Under the pieces are notes generated by a model that was not told the origin of the DNA, did not search any database, and saw only the letters and a program-made list of their open reading frames with translations. The position numbers and the translations under genes are program-made. A stretch of 64,000 nt of DNA from Candidatus Omnitrophota bacterium. GTDB lineage: Bacteria > Omnitrophota > Gorgyraeia > Gygaellales > Profunditerraquicolaceae. Positions within the stretch are counted from its first letter, which is position 1; each line of letters begins with the position of its first letter. This document shows positions 4,136 to 57,200 of the stretch, piece after piece. The stretch spans positions 234,171 to 298,170 of the forward strand of contig JAKLGJ010000002.1 of NCBI GenBank assembly GCA_022710715.1, written 5' to 3'.

Positions 4136-4140
4136 AGGGC

Positions 4141-4392
4141 TCCCGCAAAATAAAAATCCGGATTGCTTTTCCTGATTTCGGCAACCCGGTTAGTCAAAAA
4201 GGGAAACAATTCCATGGAGAAACAAATAATGTTTTCCCTGACCCCGTGGCTTTCCCCCCTCGAGAGGGGCTTTTCGATCAAGAATTTTACTGCGTGTTAC
4301 AAGCAAAGTATACCTTATGCGCTGCGGTTTTTCAATGCGCAAGAACAAACTTTTGTATCTGTTAACGCAGGCGTAAAGCCGGCTGTGCCGGA
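4141..4392 (-). promoter_or_regulatory. conserved ~250-nt leader, copy 1. In the mRNA sense it contains the GC palindrome hairpin CCCCTC-TCGA-GAGGGG, then GGAAAGCCACGGGG, then ...TTGACTAACCGGGTTGCCGAAATCAGGAAAAGCAATCCGGATTTTT, then the SD.
   Basis: ~80-85% identical by eye to 6161-6400. Confidence 0.45.
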
Positions 4393-4692
4393 CTATGCTT
4401 CAATCCGGCCGAGCAGGCTTTGGTAATCCTGGCGCGTTCTGATTATTACCAGATCATTGTTTAAAGCCTCTTGAATCGCATTAAGCACTATGGCAATCAA
4501 ATTGTCATTATCCATCTTTTCCCAGCGTCTGGCCAGGCCGTTGCGCCTGAATATAGAGTTGCTGCCGGCTGAAATGAAGAAAAGATGGATTCTTCCTGAT
4601 AATTCCTCTCTGGCTAGAAATAATATCGCCTGATTCCCCATGCACAGGACACCGTGAATAAACTTGAGCCGCAGAGAATCCGCCTGGTTCAC
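4393..4692 (-). CDS. hypothetical 99-aa protein (MNQADSLRLKFIHGVL...), GTG start.
   Basis: AGGAGG SD 6 nt upstream of GTG 4692. Sits between the two paralog genes. No family recognised. Confidence 0.45.
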   Translation of the reverse strand: MNQADSLRLKFIHGVLCMGNQAILFLAREELSGRIHLFFISAGSNSIFRRNGLARRWEKMDNDNLIAIVLNAIQEALNNDLVIIRTRQDYQSLLGRIEA

Positions 4693-4753
4693 TAAACACC
4701 TCCTGGTTGTGCTTTATCGCGCATAATCGTCGGTTCTCCTTTTAATCGCAAAT

Positions 4754-6154: not shown

Positions 6155-6160
6155 TTGGCC

Positions 6161-6400
6161 CCTTAAAAAGAAAAATCCGGATTGCTTTTCCTGATTTCGG
6201 CAACCCGGTCAGTCAATGAAAAGGGAAAATCAAATTGAGAAACAAAAGCAATTCCCCCGACCCCGTGGCTTTCCCCGCCGGAGCGGGGCTTTTCGATCAA
6301 GAATTCTGCTGCATTGTTCAGTCAAAGTATAGCTTACCGCGGGCGTATTTTCAAGGCAGAAAGGCCGACTTTTGTATCTGTTAACAAGCGGGTTAAATCG
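6161..6400 (-). promoter_or_regulatory. conserved leader, copy 2 (hairpin CCCCGC-CGGA-GCGGGG, GGAAAGCCACGGGG, GCGGGTTAAAT x2).
   Basis: Near-identical blocks with 4141-4390. Confidence 0.45.
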
Positions 6401-6406
6401 GGCGGG

Positions 6407-8374: not shown

Positions 8375-8410
8375 TATTTCCTCAAATTTAGATATATTTA
8401 GACAAGCTAG

Positions 8411-8439
8411 ATTATATAGCAATGCTTAAAATTTGTCAA
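8411..8439 (-). promoter_or_regulatory. consensus sigma70 promoter for the TonB_C-OEP gene (TTGACA - 17 nt - TATAAT on the minus strand).
   Basis: Plus-strand ATTATA 8411-8416 and TGTCAA 8434-8439. Confidence 0.6.
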
Positions 8440-9092: not shown

Positions 9093-9120
9093 ACCGAAAT
9101 GAGTAGCTCGGCTTTCTTGT
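9084..9120 (+). terminator. intrinsic terminator / expression platform. AGCCGAG-16 nt-CTCGGCT hairpin followed by TTCTTGTTT. Its 5' arm is the 3' arm of riboswitch P2, so the two are mutually exclusive.
   Basis: Inverted repeat 9084-9090 / 9107-9113, then a U-rich tract. Confidence 0.55.
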
Positions 9121-9138
9121 TTAAACGAGGGTAAGCCA

Positions 9139-9237
9139 ATGTATGCCTGGCGAAAAACAATCTGGTTTAAAACAGTAGCCCTGACCATGGTCGGGGTATT
9201 TCTGTTTTCTGAAGTTACCTGGGCTGCCAGGTCAGAT
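9139..9237 (+). other. domain: N-terminal signal peptide / membrane anchor (MYAWRKTIWFKTVALTMVGVFLFSEVTWAARS).
   Basis: Hydrophobic core and AxA-like site. Confidence 0.6.
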
Positions 9238-36200: not shown

Positions 36201-39200
36201 CCTCAATTCTTTGCAGAATGGAACCGTTCCCCTGAATTGGTTTATTAAAACTTATGGGCGGGATTGGGTGAATTTTGTCAATACCCTGCCAGAACCGGCC
36301 AGAGGAGTGCTGTTAAAGCATTATGAAGAGAATGTCAAAAAAGGCAAGTTGTATATTCGACTTGAAGGTGATTATATAGATGCAACGCTTGAGGAACAAA
36401 TTGTAAAGTGGGTTGGTCTCCACTTTATTCGTCCGGACAAAAGTCTTGCCGAAGCGAATGAGATGTACGCGGTGTATAAATTCTGGGCTATGGCGAGGTT
36501 CTTTGAAGGGAAGAGATATGAAGAATTAAACGAAGAAGACCGAGCCTACTTAAATGGCAAGATTAAAGAAAAATTGCAGATATTGCTCATATACGAAGCT
36601 TATGAATTCGCATCCTTTGTAAATAGAATGGCGTTAATACAAGCTTTGGCCCAATATCCTTTCACTGAGCTTTTCCTGGGATATGGGAAGTTGTATCAAA
36701 TCAAAGAAAGTTATATTGGGCAATCTTACGCAGAGATAGTGGCAAAAGGAAAGCAATTTAAAAAAGAGGTTCAAGAAAGAGATGAATTCTTAGAAGAAAT
36801 TAACTCCAGCTTGGGCGAATTTGGTCCGCATGCAGCGGTCAAACCAAACCGCATCATGAAGGGTAAGACTATTGGACAGAATGCCGGAACTGAATATGCC
36901 AGAGGCGATGTTTGGATTTTCTTTGATTCCAACGCTTCAATGAGATTTGAAGAACTCATAAGAATCCCTGCAGCTTTGGCTGAATTCAAGAGAAATCCCC
37001 GGGTTAAGCTGGTTCTTTTCGGAGAATACATTAATACCAAAGAATATTCCTGGATGGCTGGGTGTTTGGCGTTTGGCGAAGAAGCATGGACCCAGGTAAT
37101 GCAGCGCAGCCTGGATTCTTTTGGGGCTTGCGGATTTTATGGCCACAGTGCATTTATCAGGGCTGATGCAATGAAAGCCGCTGGCGGATTGTTAAGTTTC
37201 TACGCTTCTGAAGACTTGCTTTTAGCTATACGCTTATGGGGCAATGGTTCTTTAACCGCTCACAGAGAGTATATTTTGTTTGGTAAAGGAAGAGAAAGAG
37301 GGTATATCGCTTCGAATGTTCCGCTGGGAAGATGGTCGGAAGGGTCGTCAGAGCTGATTCTTGGTCGACAGGTGCAGCGTGCCCTGAAGGGAAATAATTT
37401 GCACATGGGGCAGAAGATGATGCTGATCTATGCTTTGTCTTTCTTCTCCAAGAAACCTTTGGTCATCGTTGCCAATAATTTATATCTATTCTTACTTATC
37501 TTCCTCGGTTTCAGTCCGTTTATTGGATTTCCGTTAGCATTAATGTTCGGAGTAATAGGAATACTTATTTCTCAAGCTATCAATACAACGGGATTGCTTT
37601 ATCTGATTGAGAATATGGGGGTGTGGAACGGAACTATTGAATTTTTGCATATGTTCCCCAAACTGTACACGTTCTTTGTTGCCGAAATCACGCCGTATGC
37701 CCAGAGATTTCTTAATGGCGCTATTAGTGGCGCCAGCGGTTTTGCTATGAGCTTACGTGGTTTGGATTTGGAATTCGTGAAATTCGATGATATCTGGGTT
37801 AACGCGACCACAACGCCTTTACGGCATACTGCTATTGCTACTATTATTTTGAGCAGCTTTTTGTTTATCGGTTCAGCAGTAAGTTTCCTTGCCCCTGTTC
37901 TTCCCGAGATACTTTTAATTACTCCTTTAATCCCGGCCATCACTTTACTGTCGATCATAGGTCTGGGAATCCTTCCTATTGTGGCTGTGGCAGTGTGGCA
38001 TAAATTGTTCCTCGGTCCCAAAGGCGTAGCGGTAAGATTGCAGATGACTTTGTCTATTCCGATGATGGCTTATGTTATCCTGGGCATCTGGTTCTGGGGT
38101 GGTGTAGGCACGAGTTTGGCTTTTGGATTCGGATGGCTGGCTTTATTTGCGACGTTATTCATTTATGGATTTGGTAGTTTTAGAGACAACAAAGTAATCA
38201 GCATGGGTGGCTTACTGCTATTCTTAGCAACCATTGCACTTACTACTTATTTTATCGCTCCCATATTCTTGCTTTTCTCGTTCTCCTTGTTTTACTTGAT
38301 CATGCCTTTTGACTGGTTCTTCATGCCGATACTTGCTCATCCAAGGATGCTGCATAATTTTCGCTATTGGAGAGCCAACGAACGGTATCTTAAGGAGATC
38401 CGGAATTTGGCGCGAGATGGGAAAGTGATTAAAGAAATGACCTCAATAATCATGGCGACCCAAGAATATGCGGAGCTTGCCCAAGAAGGAAAAATCATTG
38501 ATTTGTTTACGAAAGAACTCCCCAGGGTCCGTTCGTTAAAGGATGATTCGATCTGGCAATATCTGTCTGCGCAATCGCAGAAATATTTGGTTGCAATAAC
38601 CGGGAATCAAGAAAAAGAAATTCGCGCTAAATTCTTCTCAGAACTGTTGGCAATTGAAATTGAAAGCAAAGGAAAAACAGTGACCATCTTAGACCGCGAA
38701 ATCAACTTGAAAGGCAAGAAAGATACCATTGCCCAGATAGTTCAGGCGCGAGTAAAAGAGTTGTTGGAGAGAAACAAGGTGGAAACATTTGATGCCGCAT
38801 TGCCTGATGCTCAGGATGTCGAAGTTACTATGGAGGCCGAAAAAGGCAATATTCTTGACGTTATGATTCCTGCCGAGCTAACCCAAGGAATGGTTGCCGA
38901 TATCCAGGATGCCGTAAAAGAAGGCAGAATCAGCATTCATGGCAAGTCAGGCGATATCGAGACACCGGAGAATATTCTTACCGGGGTGGATATTAGCGTC
39001 AAAGATGACAACGACGGTGGAACTGTTTCGGCCATCTTTTATGGAATAGGGATGTTAGCCGAAGACATCATCAGCATTTATTTCTGGATGCCCTTGATTG
39101 CTGCAGCCATCGCGGGGGTAACTATATATGGGATTTTGCAGCTTTTGTTATATCCCGGCAGAAGAACAGAAACCTTATTTACTATTCAGAGTTTTAAGGA

Positions 39201-42200
39201 TTGGGGCATATGGTTTATAACTGGTCTGACCGTGGGGACTGTTACAGCACTGTTGAGATATGCTTTGCCAATGGGGTGGGGCATGGTGAACGCGGGCAGC
39301 ATATTTATTTTATCACTTGAACCCGGCATCGCTTGCGGGGTTGCGGGTATCCTTTTAGCTAGAGAGCTGAAGAAATATACCATTAATAAACCAGCTTCTT
39401 CTTTGCGCCATCAACTCCCCTATAAAGCTCTTTCTTTGCAGGGAGTTTTAGTTATGATGGGTGGATTTATTGGGTTAGTTTCTGGGACAATCTTTGAAGC
39501 GTTAATAAGCACGCATTTATGGACAGCCGATCCGCTCGATTTAACAATATTTACTGTCTTGCAGATTTTGTCGCCGATTCTGGGAGCGTTGTTTGGAGCC
39601 AAGATCAGCGGTTTATTGACCAGACCCCTTGCTCCTTCAGTCAACACGGCTACTTCTTCCCGTGAAAATGATAATGATGGAGGCAAAGCCCAGCTACGAA
39701 AAATTATAGCGACTATTCTTGCTGCTTGGAAACACCTTCAAGACACCGTGATCAGCACTTTCGGTGCATTGGTAACTACTCAGATGACACTGACGCATAT
39801 CAAGCAGAATCCAATGTACAGCGATCTGGATGTCGACGTGATAGTTCGCAAGATCGAAGTCGGACAGTTGGAATTGAGAGGCGAGGACCTTGATATCGTG
39901 GATGAAAATGATCAGCCGATAGCCGCGCTAGACAGGAATATCGCGCATGAATATGGATTGGCGCATAGGGCTGCTAATGCTATGGTAGCGATAGTCGAAA
40001 ACGGAAAGCTCGAATTTGTACTGCAACGCAGAGCTCATCATATCAAGAGGTTCCCGTTGCACTTATCGCTCTACGGAGGGCATGTGACAAGCGGTGCGAC
40101 GTACCAGCAAACGATCATTCACGAGATACAGGAAGAATTATTCCGGGGACAGGTGGCGGGCTTGAAGGGTACATTCAAGGAGATCGAGCTTAAAGACCGT
40201 TATTCCAAGGATCCGGAGAACAGGAACAATGAATTTCGCAGGCTTTATGTTTATGTGACAGCGGATGCTCAAGAAATCGGCATTATTCGTGCATACGCCC
40301 AGGAGCTCGATGAGAAGAAAAAGACCCTTACTGCAGAAGAATTTAAGCAATGGCTGGAAGAGGAAGCTCAAAAAGAGGGATATGGCGAAATCTGGAGCAT
40401 GCTTTTTGTTGACCTGCAGACACTTCTTACTGCCCCAGAATCGGTTGAAGAGAACCAGCCGGCAGCTAATAAATATATTGACCTTAAAGCAACAGATAAG
40501 TTGGCAGGATTTGAGCAACAGGAAGCAGGGCAGTATGCTCATGCGCAATTTACTCCCGATCTGCTTGATCCGTTGTTGAGGAATGGAGATGTTCTCGCGG
40601 TTTTAAAACAACTTGAGCCTGGTATTCCTGGGGCCGTTTCTGCGGTAGGAACAACGTTTGAATCAAAAGCGAAACCCGGCACGGTTCCCATGGAAATTCA
40701 TTTTAAAGTTGATTTGAAAAAGCTCCCGCCTGGAACTTACGATGCGCTAGAGATAGTCTGGGGCAACAAAAAACGCACCATTACCTTGCCGCAATCTATT
40801 GAAATCAAAGCGAACGTTGAGGAAGCCAAACAAGAAGCACAACCTGATAAGCAGGCTCCTCCTGAGAATGTCGCCGAGCCCATTGTTAATGAACAGACTT
40901 CAAGAGATCATTCAAAATCAGGCAGCATGGAAGGTAACGACGGCGGCGAGATCAGGACCGATAAGACCGAGATCAGGATGATCGAGCAGTGGGAAAAGAG
41001 ATTTGATGCCGAGACGGATGAAGATGTTCTGCGCACATCCGAGCCTAGATTGCGCTATGATCTCACGGCGTATCCCAAGATCGCGCAATTTGTTCCCGTT
41101 ACTCCCGGGAGAATATTGGAAGTGGGATCGGCCAGCGGGCGTTGGTTGTTACGGTTCGCCGGGCTGCATAAAGATTATGAGGCGTTTGGCCTGGATGTCT
41201 CCCGGAAATTATCCCAGGTTGCCAGAAGAGGCGCTTTGTTAAGAGAATTTCTCAATGTGGATATCGTCAAAGCCGATGCGTTGAATATTCCTTATAAAGA
41301 CGATGTTTTCGAGGCAACCACATGCTGCGGATTGATTGAACATTTCAAGCGCGAAGAGCAGCTAAAGATTGTCCGGGAAATGGTCCGGGTAACCCAGCCC
41401 GGCGGAGTGATTATCGTCGCCACGCCGAATTATTATTGCCCGTCCCTGATCGTTTCCATGCTCATAAGCGGCCTGGACTGGAGAAATGTCGAAAAACGCG
41501 AAGGCTGGAAGAAATGGACGTTCGGTTATGAACAGCCGCAAAAGCCCGAGGTTCTAATCGGCATATTGAAAGAGCTCGGATTGAAGGATATCGAAGCCGA
41601 TGGTTGGCTGCCGTGGTACGGGCTCGAGGGAGTGCGCAAATGGCATGAAGACACGGGCGCCGTTACATTCCCGTGGTATGCGCCTTTCTTGAAGCGTTTT
41701 GCGCAGGTATTAGATCTCGCGACGCCTTTCCTGGATACGATCTCGCATAACAGATTTTCTGCCCGGTTTGGATATGAGATCGTGATTAAGGCGACTAAGG
41801 ATGTACAAGACGGCGGCACGGCCGGAAAAATCGACATCGTTTCCCGCCTGATCGCGGCCTGGAGAACGCTGGTGGATGATTTTGAAAGCACCTTCGGCGC
41901 AGTAATGATGATGTTCGGCCAGCAGAGTGTCGTTCGGGTTCCTTCCTGGAGCGATGTGATAGACGGCGGCATGACGGTTGAAGACATCCGGATGCTGGAA
42001 GCGGCTCTGCGGATTGCGGAAAAGAATCGCAGCGCCGAGAATAAGCATGCCGTGGGCGCGGTCATATTCGACTCGAACGGACAACCGGTAGTGACCGCTA
42101 CCCGTGAGATGATCGCGGACGGCATCTATCAGCACGCTGATCGTCAGGCTATTCTGGAGGCGGATAAATTAGGGATCAAGGATTTCTCAACATACACCAT

Positions 42201-45200
42201 GGTGCTGACTGCCGAACCGTGCCAAACCTGCGCGCATTGGATCGCCCGCCGTAACTTCAAGAAGGCTATTATCGGTACCCTGGATACCAACATGCTGGAT
42301 ATTTTCGGCGCAGGGGTAATGATCCTGCGGGAAGCCGGCATTGAGGTGGCGGTTGCTCAAGGCGAGTTGCAGCGCGAGAGCAAAGCTTTGTTTACCGAAG
42401 ACCGCACGGTGGCTCAAGAGCAGAAGGACAATATGGCGTTGAGCCCGAGAGAACTTGAAACGCTTATTGCCGCGATGCTGGAATATCGCGCTAACGGCAT
42501 CTATCCGCTTTCGCCGGAAGTGGACGCTTTGATCAACAAAGCGCTGCACGCGGATTCGAATTTCATCCTCGGCCAGATCCAGGCTGCGCGCCGCGAGAAT
42601 AATATCGTCCGGTTCGAATATTTAACGAAACGCTTAGGCTGGTTGATGAACCCCCTGAATGCGCTCTATGCTTTTGACGCCGATCTCGAGAAAACCGAAG
42701 AAATAGAGCACCTAATTTTGAGACAGCGGATCCGCGGCGCCGGCCCGGACATGGCTGTTGCCATGGTTGTAGGTTCGATTGCTGCGCGGCAGGCGTTCAA
42801 AACAGCTTTACTCAACGGGAACTATTTTGCTCCGGGACACGTTTTCGAACTGGCTAACTTGGGCAAGCCGGGAGAAGAAGGGATTAATGACGGCGGCAAG
42901 CTGAACGAGGAAGAGTATAGAGATGGTTTCCGGTCCCTGGTCGGCCTTACTGCGGAGCAGATTGAGCAGAGACTGCATTCCGGACGGGTGAAATTTGATT
43001 CTAAGACACTTGAACCGATCGATTTTGCCGGAACGTCGGTTATCTTCTTCCTGGAAGACGCGCAACTGGTGGCTCAACTGCAGAAGAAAGCGCAGCAGTT
43101 CAAGGACGCACTGCGAGACGCCGGCCTGGACGATAAGTTCGCCCTGGTCAGTTTCGACTCGTTCCATGTCACCACATTCGATCTGGTCTGTGTCGAGGAT
43201 ATCAAGAAGAAAGACGGCCAGCGGGATGACGCTTTATACGGCCAGGTGTTCCCGGCAGTCAAAGCCGCGGCCGGCGCATTCATGAGCCGTGAGCCGCTTA
43301 AGGATATCAAAGCCCAGGTGACCGGTATTTCGATGTTCGCGCCTATCGTGTTGAAGCTGGCCGTGCAGATCGGCGATGCGGATCAGGCGGAACTGATTGA
43401 TTACCGGATGAGGCTGAATCAGGAACTCACCGGCATTCCCGGCTATCCTCGCAGCGCCGAGTGGAACCCGGGATACTCCGCGCATATCACCTTCGGTTAT
43501 ACCGTCAACCCGATGAACGAGCGGGAGATCGAGAAGTTTATCGCTCTTCTGAAGAAATTCAACGCGGAGTTCGAGCCGATCGCATTCGTGATGAATAAAG
43601 GCCGGGTGATGGATTTCTCGGATATGGACCATTTCTTTGATGGCGGGGATGCGACGAAAACCAGAAGCGCTTCCCGGCTGGTCGCGGCCTGGAGAACGCT
43701 CTGGGATACGTTCGACAGGGTCCTTTTCGGCGCGCTGGTGATGACCTTCGGCCAGCAGACCCGCATGCAGGATTGGAATATGATCAGCATGATCGGCAGT
43801 TACAGGACTTCCGGTCAATTCGCAACCCGAACCGGCGAGTATTCGCAGATCCAGGATATGCTGGAGCATAGTGTGATCGCGCGCGGGCCTCCTGCTGCCA
43901 GCGCCTTTTCCTATTCATTCGCATATTCAAATCCCGCGAACATATTTACCCGCTATTCTACCGGCGAATCCCTTCCTTATGACGGTCGCTCGCTGCCTTT
44001 ACGGCCTGACGCGAACGTCGATGATTTCACCTTTACCCATATACCTCTAATTACCATAAAGCAGGCTCCGACTTCCTCTACCGTGGCGGAGATGATTTCG
44101 GGGCCTGCTGGTAATTTGAGGGATCTGATGGACGGCGGCATTGCCCGGCGCATCGCGCAATTGCGCCAGGATTGGCATTTACCGTTCACCGACCAGGAGT
44201 TGCAGGCGCTTGACGCCCGTTATGCGCGGTTTACTTCCGCATCGCCGATATCCGCAGCGGAGCACGCAGCTGCACAGGTTTCCCGCCACCAGCGGACCAT
44301 TGCTCCCTTTGAAGGCGTAACTTTTACCGGCACAGGTTGGCATTCAGGCAAACAGATATCGATGACGCTTAAGCCCGCTCCCGCAGGGACCGGGATCGTA
44401 TTCGTACGTACCGATCTGCCGGGTCGTCCGCAGGTCAGGGTTATCCCGGAGAACGGCAAACAGATCTTCAAGACCGTGGCTCTGGAAGAGAACGATGTGC
44501 GCGTGCTCACCGCAGAGCATTTGCTCGCCGGCCTGGCCAGTCTGGGCATCGACAATGCTTTCATCGAGCTTGATTCAGAAGAAGTCCCGATCATGGACGG
44601 CAGCGCAATAAGCTACAGCTTGCTGGAGCTGCGCGCGCACGAGCTTATCCGCGAATTGGATGCGGACAGATCGATTGTTCCCGGTCTCGCTTCTCCGGTT
44701 ATCTACTCCAAGGAGTTCGATAACGGAGCGGTAGTCGCTCTGCCGTCGCAGGAACCGGGTTTGAAGCTTACCTATATAATCGACTTCGGTCCGCAAAACG
44801 AAATCGGCGGACAGGCGATCAGCCTGACCATCACGCCGGAGATTTTCTGGAATTATATGGCATTCGCCCGCACCTTTGTGGTGGAGAATCCGGAGATCGA
44901 CGAGCTGCGCAGATTCGGTTTCCTGCGCGGAGCAAAGCATAATACCACCGCGATCTTCGTGCCCGAGCAGAAGGTTCGGGGAGAGAAGAGGTTTGACCGG
45001 ACAGATGCGCCGGTGCTGCATAAACTGCTCGATCTGTACGGCGATCTGCAGGTGCTGAACAATCGTCTCGAAGGCGTGCATGTCATCGCCATTGAAGCCG
45101 GACACACCGATCATCTCAATTTTGTGAAGAAGCTGGATAGAACGCTGCGCGCAGAGGAATCCCGGCCGTTTACCGCCGAAGATGTCGCGCGGGTCAGCGA

Positions 45201-48200
45201 CAGGCTGGAATATTTATACACTGCCAAAAAAGCCCTGTCCGGGGATTTATACCGGCAATTGCGCAGCGAGCTGGCACCTTACGCCGGCACGCAGGACGAT
45301 GATTCGGTATACGCGCAGCTGCTCGCCGAGCAGTCGGATCCGCAAGCCTTCATCCAGGACCTGCGCAGCAAATTCGTGCATAATCAGATCGACGCCGCTT
45401 CCTATGGCCGGTTGATGCGCGCCGCCGGCAGAGAACCGTTCGTATTCCTGGGCGGCGTAGAGTTGAGCCGGGCCAGTATTGAAGGCATGGCTGAAGCCGG
45501 GTATATTCCGGATGTGGTATTCTGCTATGATCCGGAAAAATGGTCGCATATGGTCGGATTTGCCAGATTCGACGATTTAGCCGAACGTTACGGATTCAAA
45601 CTGATACCTGTAGCTACTATCAACAGTCCTGCTGTAGTCGAATTTATCCGCGATCTGCATCCGAGAGTCATGCTCATCGGCGGCTGGTCGCAGCTGATCA
45701 AGCAGGAGATCATGGATATCCCGCAGTGTTGCATCAATATTCACCCCACCGCTCTGCCGAGAAACCGCGGCCAGGCTCCTTTGCCCAATACCTTCTTCGG
45801 TCTGCAGGATAAGCTTACCGGCACCGGCGCAGTGAGCATGGTGTTTGTGGTTCCCGGAGAGCCGGATTCCGGCCCGATCATCGGCCAGAAATCTTTTGAG
45901 ATCACCGCTGTCGATACCAGCGCCACCATTTATGAAAAGGTTAAACAACTGCATAAAGAGCTGGTTCAGGAGAATATCGCGGACATCCTGAACAATCCTT
46001 TCTCGGTGCGTACCGTCAAACAGAATGAGCGCCAGCGCGTTTTGAGCAAAGCCCGGTATCCTTACGACGGCTTGATTGATTGGTCGCTTTCTGCCAATGA
46101 GATCTATAATTTCATCCGGGGGTTAGGCAAGCCGTATCCCGGCGCATTCACCGGTTACGGAACGAGCAAGCTGTTTATCTGGAAAGTAGCCGCGCCGGTT
46201 GAAGATATCGGAGTTGCGGCCGGACAAGCCGGAGAGATCATCGTAAAAGACGGCGCAGTTTACGTAGCGGTCAAGAACGGTTATCTGCAGTTACAGCAGG
46301 TCAGTTTTGACGATGAAGCGAGAATGTATGAACCGGAAGAGCTTGTTGCCTCCGGTCGCCTCATCTCCGGTGAAATGTTGGACAACAAGCAGGTGATCGA
46401 ATCGGATCTGCTCAATATCGACCTGGAACCTTCAACGACACGGCAGACTCTGGGATTGCGCATGCTCGCCCGGAATGTGGTCAAGGTTGCCGGTCAGGAT
46501 AAGGCTTATGCTCTGCAGACGCTGGATTCCATTCTGGCTAAAGTCAATATTCTGTACGCCAGGGGATTAAGGGGCGGCTTCATTCTCTTCCCGGATATCG
46601 CGCAGAGTTACATGCTCCTGGGCCAGGAGAAATTGGCCCGGGATCGTCTGGAAAAGACCCTGGATACTCTTGGTACAGAATATCTCGCGGCCAGACAGGA
46701 AAAGATCGAAAGCCTGCCGCAGATCCGGGAATGGGTATATCTTGCCCAGGCCTACAGCTATTTCGCGCCGCAGAAAGCCGCGACCATACTCCTGTACGCG
46801 GTGAAAGAATTACGCTGGATCAAATGGTTCTCTTACGAAAAATATGAAGATCTGGCCCAGGATGCGTTCGCTTTCGCGCAGGCCATCACCGAAGGCGCGG
46901 AACGGCTGAATCCGAATCAAGCCAGGACCGTGCTCGCTGCGCTGGAAGAAATCCCTGCCGAATCTCTGTTTGCCCACCGGCAGCATGTCCGCTTCTTCAG
47001 AACCATAATTTTTAAAGGCTACATTCACGCCGGGCTGGAAAAAGAAGCGCAAGCTCTGCAGGAACGCAATCGGCATATGTCGCTGGCGGAAGACCGTGTC
47101 GCCTTGATGCCCGTCATGCCCGAAGGATTGAGCATGGAGGAGATCGAAGAATTTGTAGACTCATTCCCGTTCGGCCGGACGCCTGCCGGTTTCATTGCTG
47201 TGATGCTGGGTCTTCTGGCCACATCGGTGATCGCGGGCTTGCTCGTAGGGACTTATTATCCCGCAGCCTGGCCGGTGCTGATAGCCGTTATTCTGGGTTC
47301 GATCTATCTGACGAAATATTTAGACAAAGCGGTGCTTTTTGTCCAGGATTTTATCCGCGACCATAAATTCCACTCCTACGAAGACTCTATCGCGGATGTT
47401 TTTGGCGCACCGACCGGCAATGACGGCGGGAGAGCCGTTCAGGCGATCTTGAAGAAAGCGCAGTCCATCGGCTATGTCCTGCTCGAGAAACTCGAACAGT
47501 GGCTTTTCGGCGCGGTGGTCAGGACCGAGGGGAGCATCACCTATCTGAATACGAACGACGCGGCAGTAAGCCTCTTCGAGCCGGTAATGACCGAAGGCGG
47601 CGCCATCGCAGCCCTCATCTCGCATTTTGCCGGGCAATTGTCCGGATTGAGCAAGTTCACACCGTTGACCCAGGATACCAGCCTGCCCTTCCAGGTAGCC
47701 ATCAATAAGGGCAAGAAGGGAGATAAAGGAAAATTCGTGCATTACCACACTCCTGCGCCGGGTCAGATCGCGCCGCGTCAGGAAATTCTCATTGTGCTCG
47801 ACGGCCAGATCAAAGGTCTGGTATACGATCTCAACGGCAAGTTCATCAAAGAAACCATAGTCGATCAGGGCGAAGCCATCCAGTTTATCCAGGCGCATAA
47901 CATCGAATTCCTGGAAGATTCGACCATACTGGAGATCAAGCAGGGGCCGTTCCCCGGTCCGGATAAGGACAAAGTGGTGTTTGATGCTCCGGATGGCGGC
48001 AGGTCGGCGGACTATCTTTGGACCCTGAAATGGCTGGAGCCGGGAAAAACGCTTAAAGTCAGCGCCAGGGCGTACCGCGATGATCTGCTGGCGGCCAGCG
48101 GCGACGTAACTATCGACAGCGCCGGCGCGCGGGTGTACAGTTGCTGGCTGGAATATTTTTCGGACGATCATGGCGCTGACTTGATCAGAACCCTTTTCCG

Positions 48201-51200
48201 GGGCGCCGCCGGACTGGGTAGAAACTTCGGTCTCAATCCCGAATGGGCGTTTGTGTATGCGCAGTCCCAGGAGCTGGAGGATTTCAGCGATCTGGATACG
48301 ATCAATGCGGTGATGCGTCATATGGGATTCGTTGCGGACAGCAATCACGTGGCGCGCGAGCAGATGCGCAACCCCAATCTGGATCGGTTGATCGCGCTTT
48401 CCAGCGCGGAGTTTTCATGTCTGCTGGGCTATGCTTACTGGTTCAGTCCTCTGTCCGCTTTCGCGCAGGAAAGCCCGGCGTATACGTTCGACGCAGACGG
48501 CGGGGCATCGTTCATCCTTTCGTTCGACGAGCCCGGCGCGCGGGATGTGGCTCTGGTCGGCGGCAAAGGCGCAAGTCTCTCCGAACTGGCCACCATTCCC
48601 GGAACCAGGGTGCCGGAAGGATTCGATCTGACGGTGAAAGCTTACGACCGTTTCATTCACCGCAACAATATTTCTCCGCTCATAGCGCGACTGGATATTC
48701 TTTCCGAACGGTGGATTGCGGCTTCGCTCAACGGCGATGTCCAGCTGGCGGAAGAGCTGGAGAAAGAAGTCTTCGCGCAATCGCTGGTAATAAGGGAAGC
48801 GATGCTTGCCGGGGTCATTCCCGCAGACGTGCGCAGGGAATTGGAAGAGGCGTATGTCCGGATGGGCGAAGGTTCGGTGGCCATCCGCAGCTCCGCTACC
48901 GCCGAAGACCTGCCCAACGCTTCTTTCGCCGGCAGACAGGAGACGTTCCTGAATATCAGAGGCAAAGACAACGTGGTGGAAAAAGCCAGAGAATGCATGG
49001 CCTCGCTGTTCGGCGACCGCGCCGTGTATTACCGCAATAACGATTTGAGCCTGGAGGCGATCAAAGAAGCGCGCAAGGCCGGAAAGCCTCTGGATGATGC
49101 TCTGATGGAATCCGGAATTTTGCGCCACAGTTCGGTCAAGCTGGCAGTGGTGGTTCTGCGCATGATCTATCCGTATGGCGCCGGCGTCGGGTTCAATGTG
49201 GATGTCCGTAACGGCGAGGAGGCTATTCTTATCGAAGGCAATTACGGGCTGGGAGAATCGGTGGTCAAAGGCATAGTCGAGCCTGATCTGTGGGTGCTGG
49301 ATAAAGAGGGCGCAGAGATCATTGAAAAGAAGATGGGCACCAAGACGCTGAAGATCATTTTCAGCGATCAAGGGACCGTCGAGGTCGAAGTCCCGGCTGA
49401 AGACAGAAACAGGCTCTTCCTGGATGACGCCACAGTCAAAGCCCTTGCCGCGCAGATCCGGGTTATCGGAGAGCATTACCGGTCCGCGCACGGGTATAAG
49501 TTCATGGATATCGAGTTCGTCATCGATGCGGACGGGACGATCTATTTCGTCCAGGCCCGGCCTGAAACGGTGTGGTCGAACCAGGAACTGGTCAGCCGCG
49601 GGATTCCCGTGGAAGTCGCCCGAAAAGCGAAAATCATTTTTGAAGGCGGCACTGCCGGCTTCCCGGGCGTGGTCAGCGGCACGCTGCGCATCTGCTCGAC
49701 TCTGGAAGAAGCCAGAGAAAAAGTCAAAGCCGGCGACATCCTGGCGGCCAAGGTGACCGATCCCGAATGGAACATCGTCATGTCGAAAATAGTCGGCGTG
49801 ATGGTGGACATGGGCGGGATCACCAGCCATACCGCGATCGTCAGCCGCGAAGCAAAAATCCCGAGCCTGGTGGCTACCGGCGACGCTACAGTCATGCTTG
49901 CAGGCCTGGAAGGGCAAGTCGTTACGCTTGACGCCAATAACCGGGTGGTATATCTGGGCGGCCTGGAAATAGTCGAAGGCCCGCTGGCCGAGTTCGCCCG
50001 CGACGACATTCAGCGCCGCGAGCGGGAGATCCGGACCAACGTGGTGCACAAGGAGAACGCCGAAGGCAAATGGATCGGTAAGCCGGAATATCCGCTCTCC
50101 GGCTGGCAGCTCTATTGCTACCTGCAGGCGATCAAGCTGATAGAAAAAGAATTCGATTTCGCGTTCCCGTCATTACACGTCGATCAGGGGATCATTTATA
50201 TCAAGGAAGAGGAGATCAATACCCGGTTTAACGCGCACCTCAAGAGCCTGGGCATCGATCGGCTGGAGCAGGTGCTTGCCGACCGCAAGGAAACGCTGCG
50301 CCGGTTCCTGGAGCTGGTCGATGTGCTTACGCTCACCCCCGCACAGTTCGAAGAACTCACGCAACTGTATATCCGGCTGATCATGCATTTCCATATCCGC
50401 TGGGGATTCGGCGCCGTGGTCATGGAATCTTTGCAGAGAGAACAGGTGCAGCAGTTGCCCGCCCAGTTGCAATCGGAGATCATGCAGTATTTTCATCCGT
50501 TCGAATTCAGCGAGACCAAGAAGATGGGATGGGATTTCAATGCTCTGGCCGCCGAATCCAGGGAGTTTGCCGGGCTGTTCCAGGGTAGCGTGGAAGAAAC
50601 GATCGCGGCTTTACAGCGGCAGGCTCCTGCGCTCTGGAAAAAGATCGTCCGTCACGCCAGCCAATACAAGTACGACAGCGACGATATCCGTCTGCCGGTC
50701 CCGGTGCTTAAAGTGGTCAAGAACCTGCAGGATAGAGTGCAGTCGCCGGAAGCCGCTGCCGCGGCAACGCCTGTTGCCGAAACCAACGGCGCGGAAGCTC
50801 CGGAAGCGCTCTTAAGGGAAGTCAGAAAACACGTTCGGGATTTCGACCTGTTCGTCCGCGTGCTGCAGTTGACTCACGAGCAGGCCATGCAGAAAGAGAA
50901 CGAGCATCATTTCCAGGTGAGAAAGCAATGGATCATCAGAGAGCTTTTCCTGGATTTCGGCCGGATGCTGGCCGAGCGGGGCGTGCTGGCGCAGGCGGAA
51001 GATATCTTCGACACAAACGCCGCGGATATGCTGCGGTACGTCGAAGAATACGCGCCTGCGGGATTGGATCAGACGGACGGCGGAAAACGTCAGGAAGCGG
51101 AAGCCGTTTTCCGGAAAGCGGACCGGAGCTGGAATGCGCAAGATTTCGCGGCAGCGCAAGTCCTCTACGAAGCGGCGCGCCGGCTATACGCGGAATTGAA

Positions 51201-54200
51201 CGATCAGGACAACGTGAAGCTGTCGGCGATGAGAGCGCAGGTGGCAGGCCGGGCAGTAGAAGAGCGCCGGAGCCTGGCGGACGTGTATTCTCCGGACGGC
51301 AGCTCCATAGTCGGACAGGTGACTAAGGAACAGGTGCATTTGCGGGGCGAACCGCATGCGACTTATGGCTTGCAGGTGATCACTCCTCTGGGCCGCGCGC
51401 TGTTCCAGATCAGGGATAGGGAAAAGAACAACTTTGCCGGCGCCGCCACTTTGACTTTGTGCGGGCATACGCAACCCGGCGAGAGCGCTCTGGCCGCTTT
51501 GGCCAGGGATCTCAAGAAGAACCTCGGGCTCGATCGTTTCGATCCGGTCCGCCTGACCAAGTTCGTCCTGGTCCCCGGCCAGGAATACGACCTCTACGGC
51601 TATCTGGAGATGTACACTTTCATCGCTCTGAACGCAGAGCAGGACAACGCGCTCATCGAGCTCGCCGCAGATACAATGGCTTCCGGTCGGCGCAACGGCA
51701 ACAAGCCGCTGGATCAGGTCATGGCGGTGTATCAGCCCGGCTGGCATACGCTGTCGGTTTATATCTTCCGGGAAAACAGCCGGGAAGCGCTTGAGCGCGC
51801 GGTGCGCCGGATCAGTGCGCTGACGGGTATCGGTCATACCGACCATGTGGTCAACCGGGAATGGAAAGCTATCTATCAGTATGCGATGAGCGGCGAGGAG
51901 TTATCCCGCGTATTGAATTCGGCGAACGGCGCGCAGTTTGCCCAGCGCGACCTGGAAGAAACGATCACTGATTTTAACGCCAACCCGGAGAATTATACCG
52001 ATACGTTTGTTCCCCTGTTTACCGATCCCCGGTTAGCTGGGCAGTTCAAAGAAGGTCTGGTTGTCCTTTCCGACGGCGGAGATACGGACGCTTTGCTGCC
52101 GGAAGACGAAATGTCCGAAGCGCGAGTTGAGCTGGGCAGGGACCGGTATGATCATGACCTGTATTATTTCGCCAAAAAGGGTATGTATGGACGGATCCCG
52201 CTTATCGATTTGTTGCTCGATGAGCGGATCAACGATCTGTCATTCACCTGGGACGGCGATCTGCGGCTGGGAGACCGGCAGTTCTTCTTCGCGAACGAAG
52301 CGACGCCTATCGAGAGCTTCGCCAGGGGATATCTGTCCCGGCACTCTGCCATCGTTTCCTTCAACAATCTCGGCTTCTTGAGGGAATACGCCGCCTGGAA
52401 AAGAGGCGTGCTCTACCGGAATCCGCAATCCGTCAGCCGGCAGTATTACGGCCTGGTGCACTGGAAAGAACGGTACCGCGAAAACATGTTCGAACCGTTG
52501 ACCGGGGAGCTGATTTCGTTCGAAGGCGACCGGGTGATCCGCGAAGAGGAAGATATCAGCGACGAAGTCGATTTCGCCATCTGTCCCTGTCCGATCGTGA
52601 TCAACGGCAAGCCCGTTCCGCTTACCGCGCTGGCCGACTGGTTTACCGATCTGCGTCACGCATTCATTCTTCCCAACGTGCAGGCGCCCGAGAGCGCGGC
52701 GCAGGCAGCCGGACAACAGAGCGCTTTCCGCCAGGAAATGCTGCTGGGCAGATGGGAATTGTCCAATGATCGCCGCATGCTGGAACAGGCGTTGCTGGGT
52801 ATGCCGGTGAGCTTCGACCTCTCCGCATATCTCGAAGTCAGCGGCGCAGCGTATATCCAGTCGCAACTCCGGAAGTTTGCGTACAAACCGGCTGCCGGCA
52901 TTCCGGCCCGTCGCGGTCAGTACCGCATCGACGGCAATGAAATCTCCATCAACTTCAGGGAGAGCAGATTCCCTCATCAGGTTATCGGCCTGCAGGACCG
53001 TCAGCCGGCGTTCTATTCCTTCCTGGGCGTAAGTTCCCTGTATAAGGGGCCGACGTTCAAAGAAATGCAGAAGATACTTATTGCTGATCGCGTGAGCGAC
53101 GCATTTATCCTGGTCAACGGCCGGGACGTTTTCATCAAGCAGGGCAGCGGTCCGGTGTTCGATGCCCGGTATTTAAGCGAAAGACTGCGCATCAAGCCTT
53201 CGTATGCGGACGATATCAAGAGCCACCGCGACGAAATCATGGCTGCCATCGTGCTGGTAGACGGAGGGACGTTCGCGCAGGCGATGATAAGGAAGGCCCA
53301 GTCGATCGGGTATATTATTCTGGAAAGACTCGAGGAAATGCTCTTCGGCGCGGTGGTGATGACCATGGGTAAGGTGTCGTATGTCATGCTCAAGGGCGGG
53401 GTATGGGGAGGGTTGGATCCGCTTACGCGCGAACAGATCAAGCAGCGGCTGACCGGCACCTATGCGGTTTTCGAAGGCGAAGTCAAGCATGAGACCATTA
53501 ACGACGTCATCGAACGCTGGGGCCATACTTCGTTTACCTATACGCTCACGGCAATGGAAGAATCTGGCGAATTCGATCAGGATGATGTTGAATGGGGCAG
53601 AATGCTCGTTGCCCAGCGTGACGGAGAGGGTTTTGCCGCCTGGTTCAAGGAGATGAGAGCCCGGTATCCGCATAATGCCATTCTGCGGGAGTTCGATCTC
53701 TGGCTGCAATACAGCCTGAAAGGATCGCAGAACCTTATGCTCATCCGTACGGCTTCCCGCCGGGACGTGTTGAAGGCCTTCGGGCTGGATGTCAAACAGG
53801 CACAGTCCCTGCTCAAAGGCAGGAATCCGTTTGAGGTTGATGAGCAGGATTTCGTCAAGGCGATTGTGGTCGGCGCAACCGATGTGAGCGCGGCGCATGA
53901 AGGCAGCTTGCGCAATGCGGTGTTGAAACGTTATCAGATCCCGGGGAGCCTGGCGGACTTTGCGGCTATCGCGATCGCCAACGGCGTTGCCCGGGATAAA
54001 GTAAGCAAGCTCTTTAACGCCGTGCATTGCGCGGCTGCCGGCGAAGAGCTGGTCATCGAATTCGGCCTGATGAAGGAAACCGAGGCCGGGTACTTTGCCG
54101 ATCAGTTAGTTCGGGCTGCCCGTCAGAACGAGGATTTAGACGGCGGCGATCGTTATCCGACCAGCCAGGGAAGAGACCGTCACATCCATCTGGAAGGTTC

Positions 54201-57200
54201 GATATCGTCTCGAGCAGTCAGACAGATAGCGCAGTTGATCGAGGCGCGGGCCACGGAAGAACAAAAGGCGGATTTCTGGCAGTGGATGCTTTATCACGAG
54301 CCTTACGGCGCGAAGGTGCACAGATTTAACGATATTAATACCGTTGAACAGGCCAAAGATCTTTTGCTGTCCGGCGATATCAATAGACTGAAGGATTATA
54401 TCGAGTATTCGGAAGGCATAGCCAATCATTCCAGCCGGGGAATAAAAACAAAGTTCGACAGCTTTATGCACCGTTTTTACGGTATACGCGCCGTTCTGTT
54501 CAGAACCGGCGCTCCGAGATTTGACCCCGAGCTCCAGGCGAAGATCTGCGAGATCGCGATGAATGATGTAGCGCAAGAAGCTCGAAATCAGGGTATCGTA
54601 GAGCTTGATTTGAGGGTGAAACTGGATACGACCAATAAGTCTCTGGCGGACGAACGGTGTATGGAATTCGTGAATGCCGTGATCGCTGCGGCTGAACAGG
54701 CCGAAGCGCAGTACGGGGTTAAGATCAACCTGGTCATTCCTTTCCGCCGCGACCTGATCGCCCAGGCTCTTGATCAGGGCTATACCGCCGATACCATGGA
54801 GCAGTGGATCGAAGAACGCTGGATCGCGCCGCTCAAGACGCTGGATGCCGTAAAGCTGTCCAGATTCACCGGTATCGACCTGGTGGGCAATGAACTGGGT
54901 AATAAGCCGCAGATCGAAGCGTCCGTAGCGCATTTCGATACCATGGCGGAGAAATTGAGCGTCGTGACCGGCAATCAGATCGAAATCCACGCTCATGCCG
55001 GGGAGAATTTCGATCACGACTGGGACTGGGGCATCCGCAGCATCGAAAATCTGGTGTATGGTTTGAATCACCTCAAATATATCGTGCATGGCGCGGCGCT
55101 GGCCAATGCCGATGAAGCGCGTTTCAACAGGATCTGCTGCGTCATGAAAGAGAAGGGCGTGGAAGTGCTGATCAGCATCAGCTCGAATTTGCACACCGGC
55201 GCGCTCGAGGATATGCGTCAGCATCCCGCTCCCCGGTTGCGCGACGCCGGAGTCAAAGTCATCGCCACCACCGATGATCCCGCTTCTTCCGGCATGATCA
55301 CTCTCGCCGGAGAGGAAGCTCTCCTCCGGGAGCTTTACCGCAATGACGGCGGCAAAGATGAGCTCCTGAATGAGGAGGCTGCGCGCGGGTATATTGACAA
55401 TGGCTGGCCGTTTAATTTTAAAGAAACCCTGAAACAGGCTTATCGCCAGGAATGGGAGAAAACCATGCGCACGGCTGCCGGCGATATCGCGGCAGGAACG
55501 TTGAATAAAAACAACTGGTTCAATCCCGCCATCAACCCGAACCAGGAATTCGTCACTTTTGTCATTCATCCGGACCGGGAAACCGCCCGCACCATTCACG
55601 ACGTGACCAGAAGCCTCGAAGATCTTATGCCCGAGGTTGCGCCGTCAGAGTTGCGCAGCGCCGGCATAGATGATCTGCCTGCGATGTCCGCGTGGTATCA
55701 GGCGCCGAATACGTATCATACTACCGTCTTTGCCGTCAAAGGTTTTCTGCCCCGGAAGCAAGCCGTCGAATTGTACCGATCGGTGATGTCAAGAGAGAAT
55801 CAAATCAGCCGGGCGTTGGCGAAGATACCGTCATTTGAAGTCTTTATGGAAGGGTTGATGATGACGTCTAACGGGACCTTGTTCGCCAAAGGTATTATCA
55901 CCAGCGGTAACTTCTTCCATGTCAAGAAGCTGCTTAAGGAAATCAGCTCTGAAGCGGATCCGGTATTTGCCAGACAGCCCACGCTGCTGTTTGCGCATAT
56001 GAGCCTGGCCAGGATCGTGGGAAAACTTGATCCCGCGGCCTTCGAAGCTCTTAAGGAAGAGATCAGCCAGCGGCAATATCTTAAGATGGGTTCATTTACG
56101 GTCAGCGCGGTGCGCTTCGCACACACCAACTCATACATGGACTGGGCGGACAGCGACTACACACTATTCGACCTCAACGACGGCGGATTAGTTGAAGAGA
56201 TCACCAGCGATGACCAGAAGCTGGCAGCCGTCCTCTACCATATCGCCGGGCAGCTCTCTATCGAGAAATTCAAGGGTTTGACCCCGGACGAAACCCTGTC
56301 TATGCAGGTGGGGATCAACCGGGGTAAGGCAGGGACATCCGGCCCGATGATGCATTATCTTTCGCCCAGGGCCGGGGAAGATAAACCCAGAGAGATAATT
56401 ATCTACGTGCTGGAAGGCGCGATCGAAGCCGTGGAGCTTGACCGTGCGACTTTGCAGGAGAAGACCCAGGTGATCCAAGCCGGGGAATTAGTGCAGTTTA
56501 TCGGACCGCATACCATTCGTTTCCTGGAAGATTCTCTCTTGCTTGAAATCAAGGAAGGGCCGTATCCCGGACCCAGGAAAGACAAGGTTCTGGTATCGGT
56601 TATTCCCGACAGCAAGGTGATCGCGGAGATCGTTGACGCCACGGGCGAAGTGAATGATCTGCTGGCGGGTTTGTCGGCCGCGGTCAAAGCGCTCGATGAT
56701 AACAACGATTTCATCAAAAAGCTCAATATCGCGTTGCGCATTGTGGATAGCGAGAAATTACCGGTCGCATTTACCATTAAGGTCCAGGAAAATGTCGGTT
56801 TGCTGGGCGCGGTGGGAGAGGATAAGAAATCGGTTTTGATCGATTCGAGTATGCTGGCCAGAGGCCCCCCGCAACTCGCCGCTTTTGTCCTCCTGCTTAA
56901 TGCGTACTCCATGGCCTATCCGGAGCAACTCGAGGCCGTGAAAAGAATCGTTCTGCGCGCCCTTTTCAGAGAGCATGTCTATAATCCCGAACCCGCTCAA
57001 AGCATTCTCACCAGAATGCTGGAGCAGGCTTCGCTTCCCGCGGACTGGCTTGATTCCCTGCGCGAGTTGCAGTCGGTGATCGACATGCGTCTTCCTTCCA
57101 TCCTGAACAATCCAGCCGCATATACAAAGCTCTACGACTACCTTACCTATATGGCGGTTATTGCCTATGACCCGGCGCAGGGCCTGGGAACCAAATCCTA

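Follow-up and report, generated by a model that had tools for sequence, protein, structure and literature searches.

Giant proteins of the bacterial phylum Omnitrophota have been described in two preprints, as 'Archaeovorin'-type proteins (bioRxiv 10.1101/2023.11.21.568195) and as 'multi-enzyme metabolic clusters' (bioRxiv 10.64898/2026.06.07.730766). The largest known bacterial proteins comprise tens of thousands of residues and occur mostly in Omnitrophota. In the first preprint, by West-Roberts et al. (2023), cleavage of these giants by C39 or S8 domains was proposed, information on the cleavage points was lacking, and the question was raised whether such proteins function as one chain or are cut, and where. 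This study analyzed a stretch of 64,000 nucleotides (hereafter the window) from the metagenome-assembled genome of a Candidatus Omnitrophota bacterium (assembly GCA_022710715.1, contig JAKLGJ010000002.1, positions 234,171 to 298,170 of the forward strand), in which a giant gene encodes a string of enzyme units separated by the tripeptide Asp-Gly-Gly (DGG). Six of the DGG marks are followed by a helical module, and a peptidase C39 domain is present in the same protein. We propose, tentatively, that this protein is a polyprotein cut after DGG.

The giant protein resembles both published types in its phylum, its size (>18,000 aa here), and its many transmembrane (TM) segments. An N-terminal signal-like segment followed by a C39 domain, a long unannotated N-terminal region, and diverse metabolic Pfam domains, including NUDIX and methyltransferases, are further shared properties. 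The features that characterize class 1 of the multi-enzyme giants (bioRxiv 10.64898/2026.06.07.730766), namely the phylum, a length of >10,000 aa, many Pfam families without a dominant one, and TM anchoring, were all found. In contrast to the published giants as described there, the present protein has DGG punctuation with an extended consensus and a post-DGG module, and relatives carry alternative marks; a term search of bioRxiv 10.1101/2023.11.21.568195 and bioRxiv 10.64898/2026.06.07.730766 returned no mention of these four properties. The Omnitrophota giants, their C39 domains, and the idea of cleavage are already published, and the DGG punctuation with its consensus, the module family, and the lineage-specific marks are, as far as this search goes, new.

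C39 peptidases (PF03412/MEROPS C39) cleave after Gly-Gly, and their canonical substrates are recognized through an amphipathic leader helix upstream of the GG, with hydrophobic residues at -4, -7, -12, and -15. The giant protein is similar to the C39 bacteriocin and peptide exporters (the PCATs ComA, PCAT1, and LahT) in having a Pfam C39 match above the cut-off, Cys and His residues in the expected motifs, and Gly-Gly candidate sites. Unlike in the PCATs, the C39 domain is not fused to an ABC transporter, and the candidate substrate is its own chain with 26 internal sites instead of one N-terminal leader. Unlike PCAT substrates, the sites lack a conserved upstream leader helix, possess an invariant P3 Asp, and have a conserved helix downstream.

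Two other systems offer functional parallels. The cysteine protease of MARTX toxins frees effector domains from its own chain, and these toxins (CPD, MEROPS C80) share with the giant protein a very large size, unrelated enzyme domains in a string, an own cysteine protease, and short linker sites. They differ in the protease type (C80, compared with C39 here), in the site (after Leu, compared with the candidate site after DGG), and in the cargo, most units here being metabolic-type enzymes and not known toxins; the giant protein is also far longer and has many TM segments. Neither CPD nor RTX was among the Pfam matches of the giant protein, and the resemblance to MARTX would thus be functional only. 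Papain-like proteases that cut after Gly-Gly are familiar from viral polyproteins, examples being coronavirus PLpro (LxGG), arterivirus PLP2, and alphavirus nsP2. Common to both would be a protease of the clan CA type in cis, GG-terminated marks that separate enzyme units, a consensus that varies by lineage, and amphipathic helices beside the sites. Unlike the viral polyproteins, the giant protein is a cellular bacterial protein, is approximately ten times longer, and has no sequence relationship to them, and the comparison, drawn from general knowledge, is meant as an analogy of mechanism only.

DGG marks separate the units of a giant protein

A frame scan of the plus strand revealed one stop-free frame of 18,299 codons, with a probable ATG start codon at nt 9139, that remains open at the 3' end of the window (Table 1). 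The region covered by an earlier reading of the letters alone (hereafter the sequence-only reading) falls entirely within this frame. Pfam searches identified, from approximately aa 5300 onward, a chain of unrelated enzyme families, approximately 15 in all: methyltransferases, a glucan-synthase-like glycosyltransferase, NUDIX, dCMP/cytidine deaminase, 2H phosphodiesterase, LpxC, formyltransferase, the N-terminal and mobile domains of pyruvate-phosphate-dikinase (PPDK), an adenosine-deaminase-like domain, P-loop kinase, and PGI/SIS. A crude hydropathy scan detected 37 TM-like segments in the protein.

The sequence-only reading had regarded DGG as a mere prefix of the helical module. The results revealed that DGG is instead the dominant signal: in aa 4601-18299, 26 DGGs were observed, compared with 4.0 expected from composition (P 3e-13; the maximum of 500 shuffles was 10), and these lie between units of a protein that itself contains a C39 domain. 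No DGG occurs in the first 4600 aa, an absence that is not significant alone because only 1.4 are expected there. Asp precedes 26 of the 82 GG dipeptides of the protein, and GG itself, with approximately 94 expected, is not enriched. None of the 26 sites lies inside a Pfam match, and almost every recognized enzyme is bracketed by DGGs, which are found 7-18 aa ahead of the deaminase, PPDK, and kinase domains and 17 aa past the adenosine-deaminase domain. The intervals from one DGG to the next range from 39 to 4162 aa, with a protein-sized median of approximately 290. The giant protein comprises approximately 25 enzyme-sized units separated by DGG marks.

The residues around the mark yielded the consensus [DE]-x-[N/x]-D-G-G-[K/R/x], with an acidic P6 in 12 of the 26 sites, Asn at P4 in 9, and Lys or Arg at P1' in 11. 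The acidic residue three positions ahead of the Asp produces a DxxD-G pattern, and a caspase-like enzyme cutting D/GG may be considered on these grounds; the invariance of both glycines is a better fit to a GG-specific enzyme. Gly-Gly at -2/-1, as in a double-glycine leader, is present at all 26 sites, and the upstream amphipathic helix and short precursor of such leaders are not. GAC and GGC are preferred in DGG to the same extent as in D-G and G-G pairs elsewhere, with no bias in the codon of the second Gly. Because codon choice follows the general D-G and G-G context, the signal is at the protein level and not at the DNA level, and a DNA-level repeat or recombination scar was ruled out on the same evidence. 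A GlyGly-CTERM/rhombosortase-type signal was rejected, with a TM helix following only 2 of the 26 DGGs and no DGG being C-terminal, and so were RTX calcium-binding repeats, no tandem nonapeptides being present.

A second motif, RGPP, is also over-represented (5 occurrences, compared with 0.09-0.23 expected) and is located at nt 22828, 26491, 29248, 43882, and 56860 (aa 4576, 5797, 6716, 11594, and 15920). Two of its copies precede a DGG, by 12 and 26 residues. R[AG]PP or GPPA also recurs at the unit boundaries of many other giant fragments; examples are P0027, P0038, P0042, and P0047, where it comes right after the nucleoside-diphosphate-kinase-like (NDK-like) domain, and P0008, where it follows TM-plus-helix units.

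A helix module follows six DGG marks

The module spans approximately 45 residues and consists of DGG, a 25-residue amphipathic helix, the element [FY]GA[VL][VM]-x-[TM]-x-G, and a short strand. The sequence-only reading had described five copies in two subtypes of one conserved module. All five were recovered in the plus frame where it had placed them (Table 1; copies are named by the residue number of their DGG), and a sixth was found outside its range, at nt 24676 (DGGRSQKLFAKMTILGQKIFEALQKLWRYGAVVAMFGTQ), raising the total to six. Within the subtypes, the similarity is significant: copies 10903 and 11513 (subtype 1) are 53% identical over 49 aa (E 5e-9), and copies 12774 and 14720 (subtype 2) are 48% identical over 62 aa (E 1e-12). 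Between the subtypes, a profile hidden Markov model (HMM) of one scored only 3-4 bits on the other, and by sequence comparison the two are linked only by DGG, the spacing, and the FGAVV element.

The spacing is strict. The pentapeptide [FYW]GA[VLIM][VLIMA] starts 28 (once 29) residues from the D of DGG in all six copies, and of the eight pentapeptides of this form that the protein contains, six occur at that spacing (binomial P ~1e-13). The hydrophobic moment of the module helices is 0.49-0.61, and four of the six exceed the 95th percentile of the background (0.52). The net charges of the copies are +5, +3, -1, +2, +2, and 0, copy 10903 being the negative one. Three of the six copies lie 13-43 aa past TM clusters.

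Copy 14720 was further analyzed through structure prediction with AlphaFold2 (AF2). The module showed a predicted local distance difference test (pLDDT) score of <50 and was left unpacked, whereas the NDK-like domain that follows it scored >94; in this one copy, the result fits a linker-borne helical element. The helix of copy 14720 occupies the place of the approximately 25-35-residue N-terminal extension that free-standing NDK-like homologs have of their own, and FGAVVMTMG is inserted between helix alpha-0 and strand beta-1, an insertion common only to the fragment P0003 (LGALVRTVG). The earlier suggestion of a reused linker, docking, or targeting element holds insofar as the copies stand at the boundaries of methyltransferase, NUDIX, deaminase, cupin-like, NDK-like, and one unknown unit; encapsulation and PKS/NRPS docking found no support in the Pfam results.

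Two of the units next to DGG marks are cupin-like domains, copies A and B, which are paralogous as previously proposed (41% identity over 170 aa, E 1e-38). Compared with copy A, copy B has an insertion of eight residues (DLNDGGLV) that includes the DGG, which suggests that a short motif was gained in a linker. A stretch at nt 56185 had been taken for a related DGG-helix module; it is the N-terminal strand and helix of copy B, because it aligned with residues downstream of the module in copy A. The FLEDS...KDKV segment of the cupin-like domains is approximately 350-550 nt after DGG and not approximately 250 nt as assumed, and the apparent pairing of module and cupin reflects a paralogous duplication of the cupin unit instead of functional coupling. 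The two window copies had no Pfam match at E <= 0.5, and the label 'cupin' is borrowed solely from sub-threshold matches of free-standing homologs to Cupin_1/2/3 (E 2.5e-4 to 0.04) and of P0003 to Cupin_2 (E 0.0015); an HYH...E...G motif is visible in the cupin-like sequence.

The same protein carries a C39 peptidase domain

The match to PF03412 covers profile positions 8-130 of 133 (E 1.2e-7; 32.1 bits compared with a cut-off of 22), and the relative P0001, which is 85% identical, likewise carries PF03412. Inspection of the domain suggested C597 (PPCGAVALA), H671 (QGHYVTV), and D687 (YCDATG) as candidate catalytic residues, all of which are conserved in P0001; the oxyanion Gln six residues ahead of C597 was not evident by the same inspection. 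An AF2 model computed from a 2-sequence alignment had a mean pLDDT of 48. A Foldseek search with this low-confidence model produced no significant match, with C39-like domain, PCAT1, and HlyB entries among the matches listed, and a phmmer search of the domain against the PDB was not significant (7n87, E 0.98; 3k8u, E 1.7). The Pfam matches of the giant protein (18,299 aa) and of its four upstream genes included no ABC transporter domain; upstream, only a TolC/OEP-TonB_C gene was present.

The N-terminus of the giant protein is signal-peptide-like (MYAWRKTIWFK-TVALTMVGVFLFSEV-TWA-A, nt 9139-9240), with a positively charged n-region, a 15-residue hydrophobic stretch, and then TWA-A. A long low-complexity region rich in Ser, Asn, and Thr follows (nt 9300-10000). 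Approximately 14 residues past the C39 domain, the tetrapeptide TYGG (aa 726-729, nt 11278-11289) is conserved in P0001; with Tyr in place of Asp at P3, it could serve for self-release of the protease.

Relatives carry DGG or other marks at equivalent boundaries

A full HMMER scan with aa 14650-15849 over 1.84 billion representatives returned 152 matches, many of which are 1,000-7,000-aa fragments of other multi-enzyme giants. The matches belong to the divergent NDK-like, adenosine-deaminase-like, and cupin-like families, and they mostly begin just after or stop just before a DGG (approximately 365-374 to 748-765 and 1038-1049 to 1179-1190 in query numbering). Approximately two dozen free-standing cupin homologs of approximately 125-150 aa have their Met start at, or a few residues from, the residue after DGG 15693. 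DGG therefore marks positions that are natural protein N-termini elsewhere.

Over 55 homologous fragments, DGG showed no general enrichment (30 observed, 31 expected). Enrichment was seen in two further fragments from Omnitrophota, P0003 (5, compared with 0.37 expected) and P0015 (3, compared with 0.29 expected), where DGG occupies boundaries equivalent to those in the window: ahead of the deaminase in P0015 and directly before and directly after the cupin in both. Further relatives bear other marks. In P0007, (S)SSP[IVL] occurs 17 times (SSSP, 13 compared with 0.08 expected), and in P0014, SSPI stands directly before and after the cupin-like domain, exactly where the window has DGG. P0013 contains [ST]KSHPAG five times and P0102 contains LQTSSTRK six times, both at domain-size spacing. 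These results revealed that matching boundaries bear different short marks in different lineages. Sequence-specific marks that vary by lineage agree better with recognition by a co-evolving factor than with a passive linker. In P0007, P0014, P0071, P0013, P0046, P0102, and P0010, the recurrent marks were spaced 150-550 aa apart, and EMR is possibly another such mark.

A polyprotein reading and its alternatives

On the basis of these findings, we consider it plausible, at slightly less than even confidence, that the giant protein is a polyprotein cut after DGG. In the mechanism that we envisage, its own N-terminal C39 peptidase, or another Gly-Gly-specific protease, would cut after DGG, and the NUDIX, cupin-like, NDK-like, and one unknown unit would then begin with the module. 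In the two places where a second DGG follows 51 or 63 residues on, the module would be a free small peptide. The module may serve to keep its unit, or itself as a peptide, on the membrane surface; TM clusters directly precede three copies, and soluble units would be re-tethered by the remaining ones. A specific mark that stands at unit boundaries and varies among lineages is more in keeping with a protease site than with a passive hinge.

Several observations weigh against this proposal. The signal-like N-terminal segment, which resembles a signal peptide or signal anchor, means that the C39 domain may be extracytoplasmic, which bears on its reach of the DGG sites. The enzyme units, of SAM-, ATP-, and PEP-dependent types, resemble cytoplasmic enzymes, and the protease and the DGG sites may hence be on opposite sides of the membrane. 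The papain-like fold and catalytic geometry of the C39 domain are putative, its candidate catalytic residues having been assigned by sequence inspection. At the 26 sites, no hydrophobic periodicity was found upstream of DGG, only the Asn at P4 and the acidic P6, and the sites are internal. The putative tethering role is read from the amphipathicity and position of the module alone, and one copy is net negative. Beyond this protein, the module was found only in part, in P0003, which has LGALVRTVG with an 11-residue spacer and a separate NGG-...AAAW... helix. Pattern scans of genome and metagenome collections (FGA[VL][MV]M[MT]F and [KR]KAQSIGY, with single-protein and subtype-pair queries) returned no further copy.

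The module HMMs detected P0003 alone, and weakly, among 151 fetched homologs; the NGG-...EFAAAWSML... helix of this fragment ends at a DGG and resembles copy 10903, which itself lies between two DGGs. The alignment of the six copies is too divergent for deriving a scan pattern. Neither the six-module alignment nor aa 10170-11700 retrieved anything in a word-indexed protein search, the index of which evidently lacks the giant protein itself. Part of the silence arises because the contig, in its NCBI and JGI copies, stops within the giant gene at approximately window nt 29,870; an upstream gene of the window is present on these copies and, in identical form, on a 914-kb ENA contig.

The strongest alternative, which we regard as unlikely, is that DGG is a flexible hinge only and that the giant works uncut as a membrane-tethered string of enzymes, the modules being ordinary juxtamembrane or inter-domain helices. 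Multi-enzyme Omnitrophota giants are read as inner-membrane-anchored enzyme arrays in bioRxiv 10.64898/2026.06.07.730766. Gly-Gly is a natural hinge, three modules come after TM clusters, and the C39 domain may, given the signal-like N-terminal segment, be across the membrane from the enzyme units. A passive hinge, however, requires no invariant Asp, P4 Asn, acidic P6, or basic P1', and GG lacking a preceding Asp shows no enrichment (82 GG in total, compared with approximately 94 expected). The replacement of DGG by equally specific marks (SSSP[IV], KSHPAG, and LQTSSTRK) at equivalent boundaries in other lineages would likewise be unexpected.

Other alternatives concern the module. It might serve as an exosite for the processing protease that flags some DGGs for early or efficient cutting, the 25-residue spacer being a ruler from the scissile bond to the FGAVV contact. 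The distance from DGG to FGAVV is kept in 6 of 6 copies despite the diverged spacer sequence, and AF2 leaves the module unpacked, as expected of an element that binds in trans. We nevertheless judge this improbable: known C39 peptidases, according to the established work on ComA, PCAT1, and LahT, read upstream and not downstream of GG, 20 of the 26 sites have no module, and the spacer ahead of LGALVRTVG in P0003 is only 11 residues long. Equally improbable, in our estimation, is that the modules are functionless leftovers of a partial duplication of the NDK-like N-terminal extension (helix alpha-0 and the first strand) that were spread by unit shuffling. The paralogous cupin copies are clear evidence of such shuffling, NDK-like homologs, whether free-standing or fused, possess an extension of similar length ahead of strand beta-1, and the similarity of copy 12774 reaches the first strand (GSITYL compared with GKVSYVML), the rest of the domain being absent. 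However, all six copies retain DGG, the exact spacing, amphipathicity, and FGAVV.T.G while the rest has drifted past detection by the subtype HMMs, and the preservation of a few features amid drift points to selection on those features and not to decay.

The double-DGG copies (aa 5195-5257 and 10906-10956) could be released as free membrane-active peptides of 51-63 residues that resemble class II bacteriocins, the classical products of C39 processing. Two modules do have a DGG on either side, P0003 has short helix peptides of 39 and 30 residues between [DN]GG sites, the helices are amphipathic, mostly cationic, and followed by a hydrophobic stretch rich in Gly and Ala, and Omnitrophota have been reported as predators or parasites. 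We find this account very improbable as an explanation of the modules, with no similarity to known bacteriocin families found, 4 of the 6 modules staying attached to an enzyme unit, and copy 10903 being net negative. Finally, the earlier idea of targeting or encapsulation peptides or PKS/NRPS-style docking helices, which matches the module in size (approximately 35-45 aa), helical character, and reuse ahead of different enzymes, is scarcely credible, PKS, NRPS, and shell-protein domains being absent from the Pfam matches of the giant protein and four upstream genes and all units already being in one chain, so that targeting would be relevant only after cleavage.

Other units and neighboring genes

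The coordinates of the features are listed in Table 1. For the NDK-like domain, the AF2 model was compared with the PDB by using Foldseek; NDKs were the top 43 of the 50 matches listed, with TM-scores of 0.44-0.64 on the target. The domain contains a helical insertion and has no Pfam match. It was encountered widely among giant fragments, where it often follows a P-loop kinase, and as a free-standing protein of approximately 280 aa; the conserved motifs are LKGG..GG, RW, EQDFVK..VVG.TN...AH.GSLR, and NA.H.P.

The unit that precedes cupin-like copy B would be of the 2H phosphoesterase type judging by its two motifs, with no Pfam match, and its C-terminal strands align weakly with the segment after the module in copy A. 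The deaminase unit (nt 41980-42280, aa 10961-11058) yielded a sub-threshold match to the MafB19-like toxin deaminases (E 2.7e-4); in L006, aa 3747-3840 gave a MafB19-like match of E 3.9e-8, above the 27-bit cut-off. Some units may be effectors or toxins and not housekeeping enzymes.

Table 1. Positions of the giant protein, its DGG marks, helix modules, and selected units in the window
Feature	Position (nt)	Strand	Remarks
Giant multi-enzyme, membrane-anchored protein	9103..63999	+	Frame scan, Pfam; Candidatus Omnitrophota bacterium
Peptidase C39 (double-glycine peptidase) domain, aa 592-712	10876..11238	+	PF03412
DGG punctuation sites (26), whole span	22906..60885	+	
DGG sites 1-13, start of D codon	22906, 24676, 24865, 25555, 26527, 39013, 39676, 40939, 41809, 41962, 42889, 43639, 44131	+	
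DGG sites 14-26, start of D codon	47422, 47992, 48496, 51076, 52072, 53260, 54139, 55345, 56179, 58312, 58933, 59050, 60877	+	
Module copy aa 5192 (sixth copy)	24676..24810	+	13 aa past a cluster of three TM-like segments; second DGG 63 aa on, just before methyltransferase unit
Module copy aa 10192, subtype 1	39676..39810	+	27 aa past TM cluster, ahead of NUDIX unit
Module copy aa 10903, subtype 1	41809..41943	+	Second DGG 51 aa on, immediately ahead of dCMP-deaminase unit
Module copy aa 11513, subtype 1	43639..43773	+	After 2H-phosphodiesterase-like unit; next DGG 164 aa on, before LpxC
Module copy aa 12774, subtype 2	47422..47556	+	43 aa past TM pair, ahead of cupin-like copy A
Module copy aa 14720, subtype 2	53260..53394	+	N-terminal extension of divergent NDK-like unit
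Cupin-like copy A, aa 12832-12964	47596..47994	+	Ends at DGG 12964
Divergent NDK-like domain, aa 14754-15012	53362..54138	+	Between module 14720 and DGG 15013
Unit between DGG 15415 and DGG 15693	55354..56178	+	Two H-x-[TS]-x motifs (YHTTV, AHMSL)
Cupin-like copy B, aa 15696-15839	56188..56619	+	Begins right after DGG 15693

Within the giant gene, the G+C content is approximately 42-44% at nt 34000-40000 and 55-58% at nt 42000-58000, and the gene may be a mosaic of captured cassettes from different origins. Open reading frames of 245-544 aa on the minus strand (nt 47320-50049, 52240-55599, 56758-58611, and 61333-62835) are antisense to its high-GC part and most likely represent not genes but frames left open by chance in a GC-rich coding sequence. 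Upstream, genes in divergent orientation lie on the minus strand (nt 6410-8422 and 534-2510); among the upstream products are one in which a TolC-like outer-membrane efflux protein is joined to a TonB C-terminal domain and another with MgtE_N and FliG-like domains. The giant gene of L004, an 85% identical relative (GCA_025490955.1), is also preceded by the same TolC-TonB gene, and the position of this gene hints at a link to export. In L004, gene calling divides the giant gene in two (706 and 624 aa; nt 3871-7856), with the C-terminal tail altered at the break, which looks like a frameshift or assembly error in that contig.

Implications for giant bacterial proteins

With the DGG marks, explicit candidate cleavage points become available for the first time for these giant bacterial proteins, comprising 26 precise positions and a candidate for the cognate protease. 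The lack of cleavage points had also hindered unit-by-unit structure prediction. The alternative marks in other lineages suggest a general rule, and we regard it as possible, although doubtful, that the multi-enzyme giants of Omnitrophota are true bacterial polyproteins in which a lineage-specific mark is read by a co-evolving protease of the same chain. The marks would be DGG here and in P0003 and P0015, (S)SSP[IVL] in P0007, P0014, and P0071, [ST]KSHPAG in P0013 and P0046, and LQTSSTRK in P0102; in the DGG lineage, some products would carry a membrane-binding module and some modules would be free membrane-active peptides. If true, the Omnitrophota giants would constitute a cellular counterpart of viral polyprotein expression, and the marks would offer structure prediction, proteomics, and biochemistry a practical means of dividing giants into functional parts. 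In that case, the module would act as a sorting or tethering signal that is particular to polyproteins of this kind.

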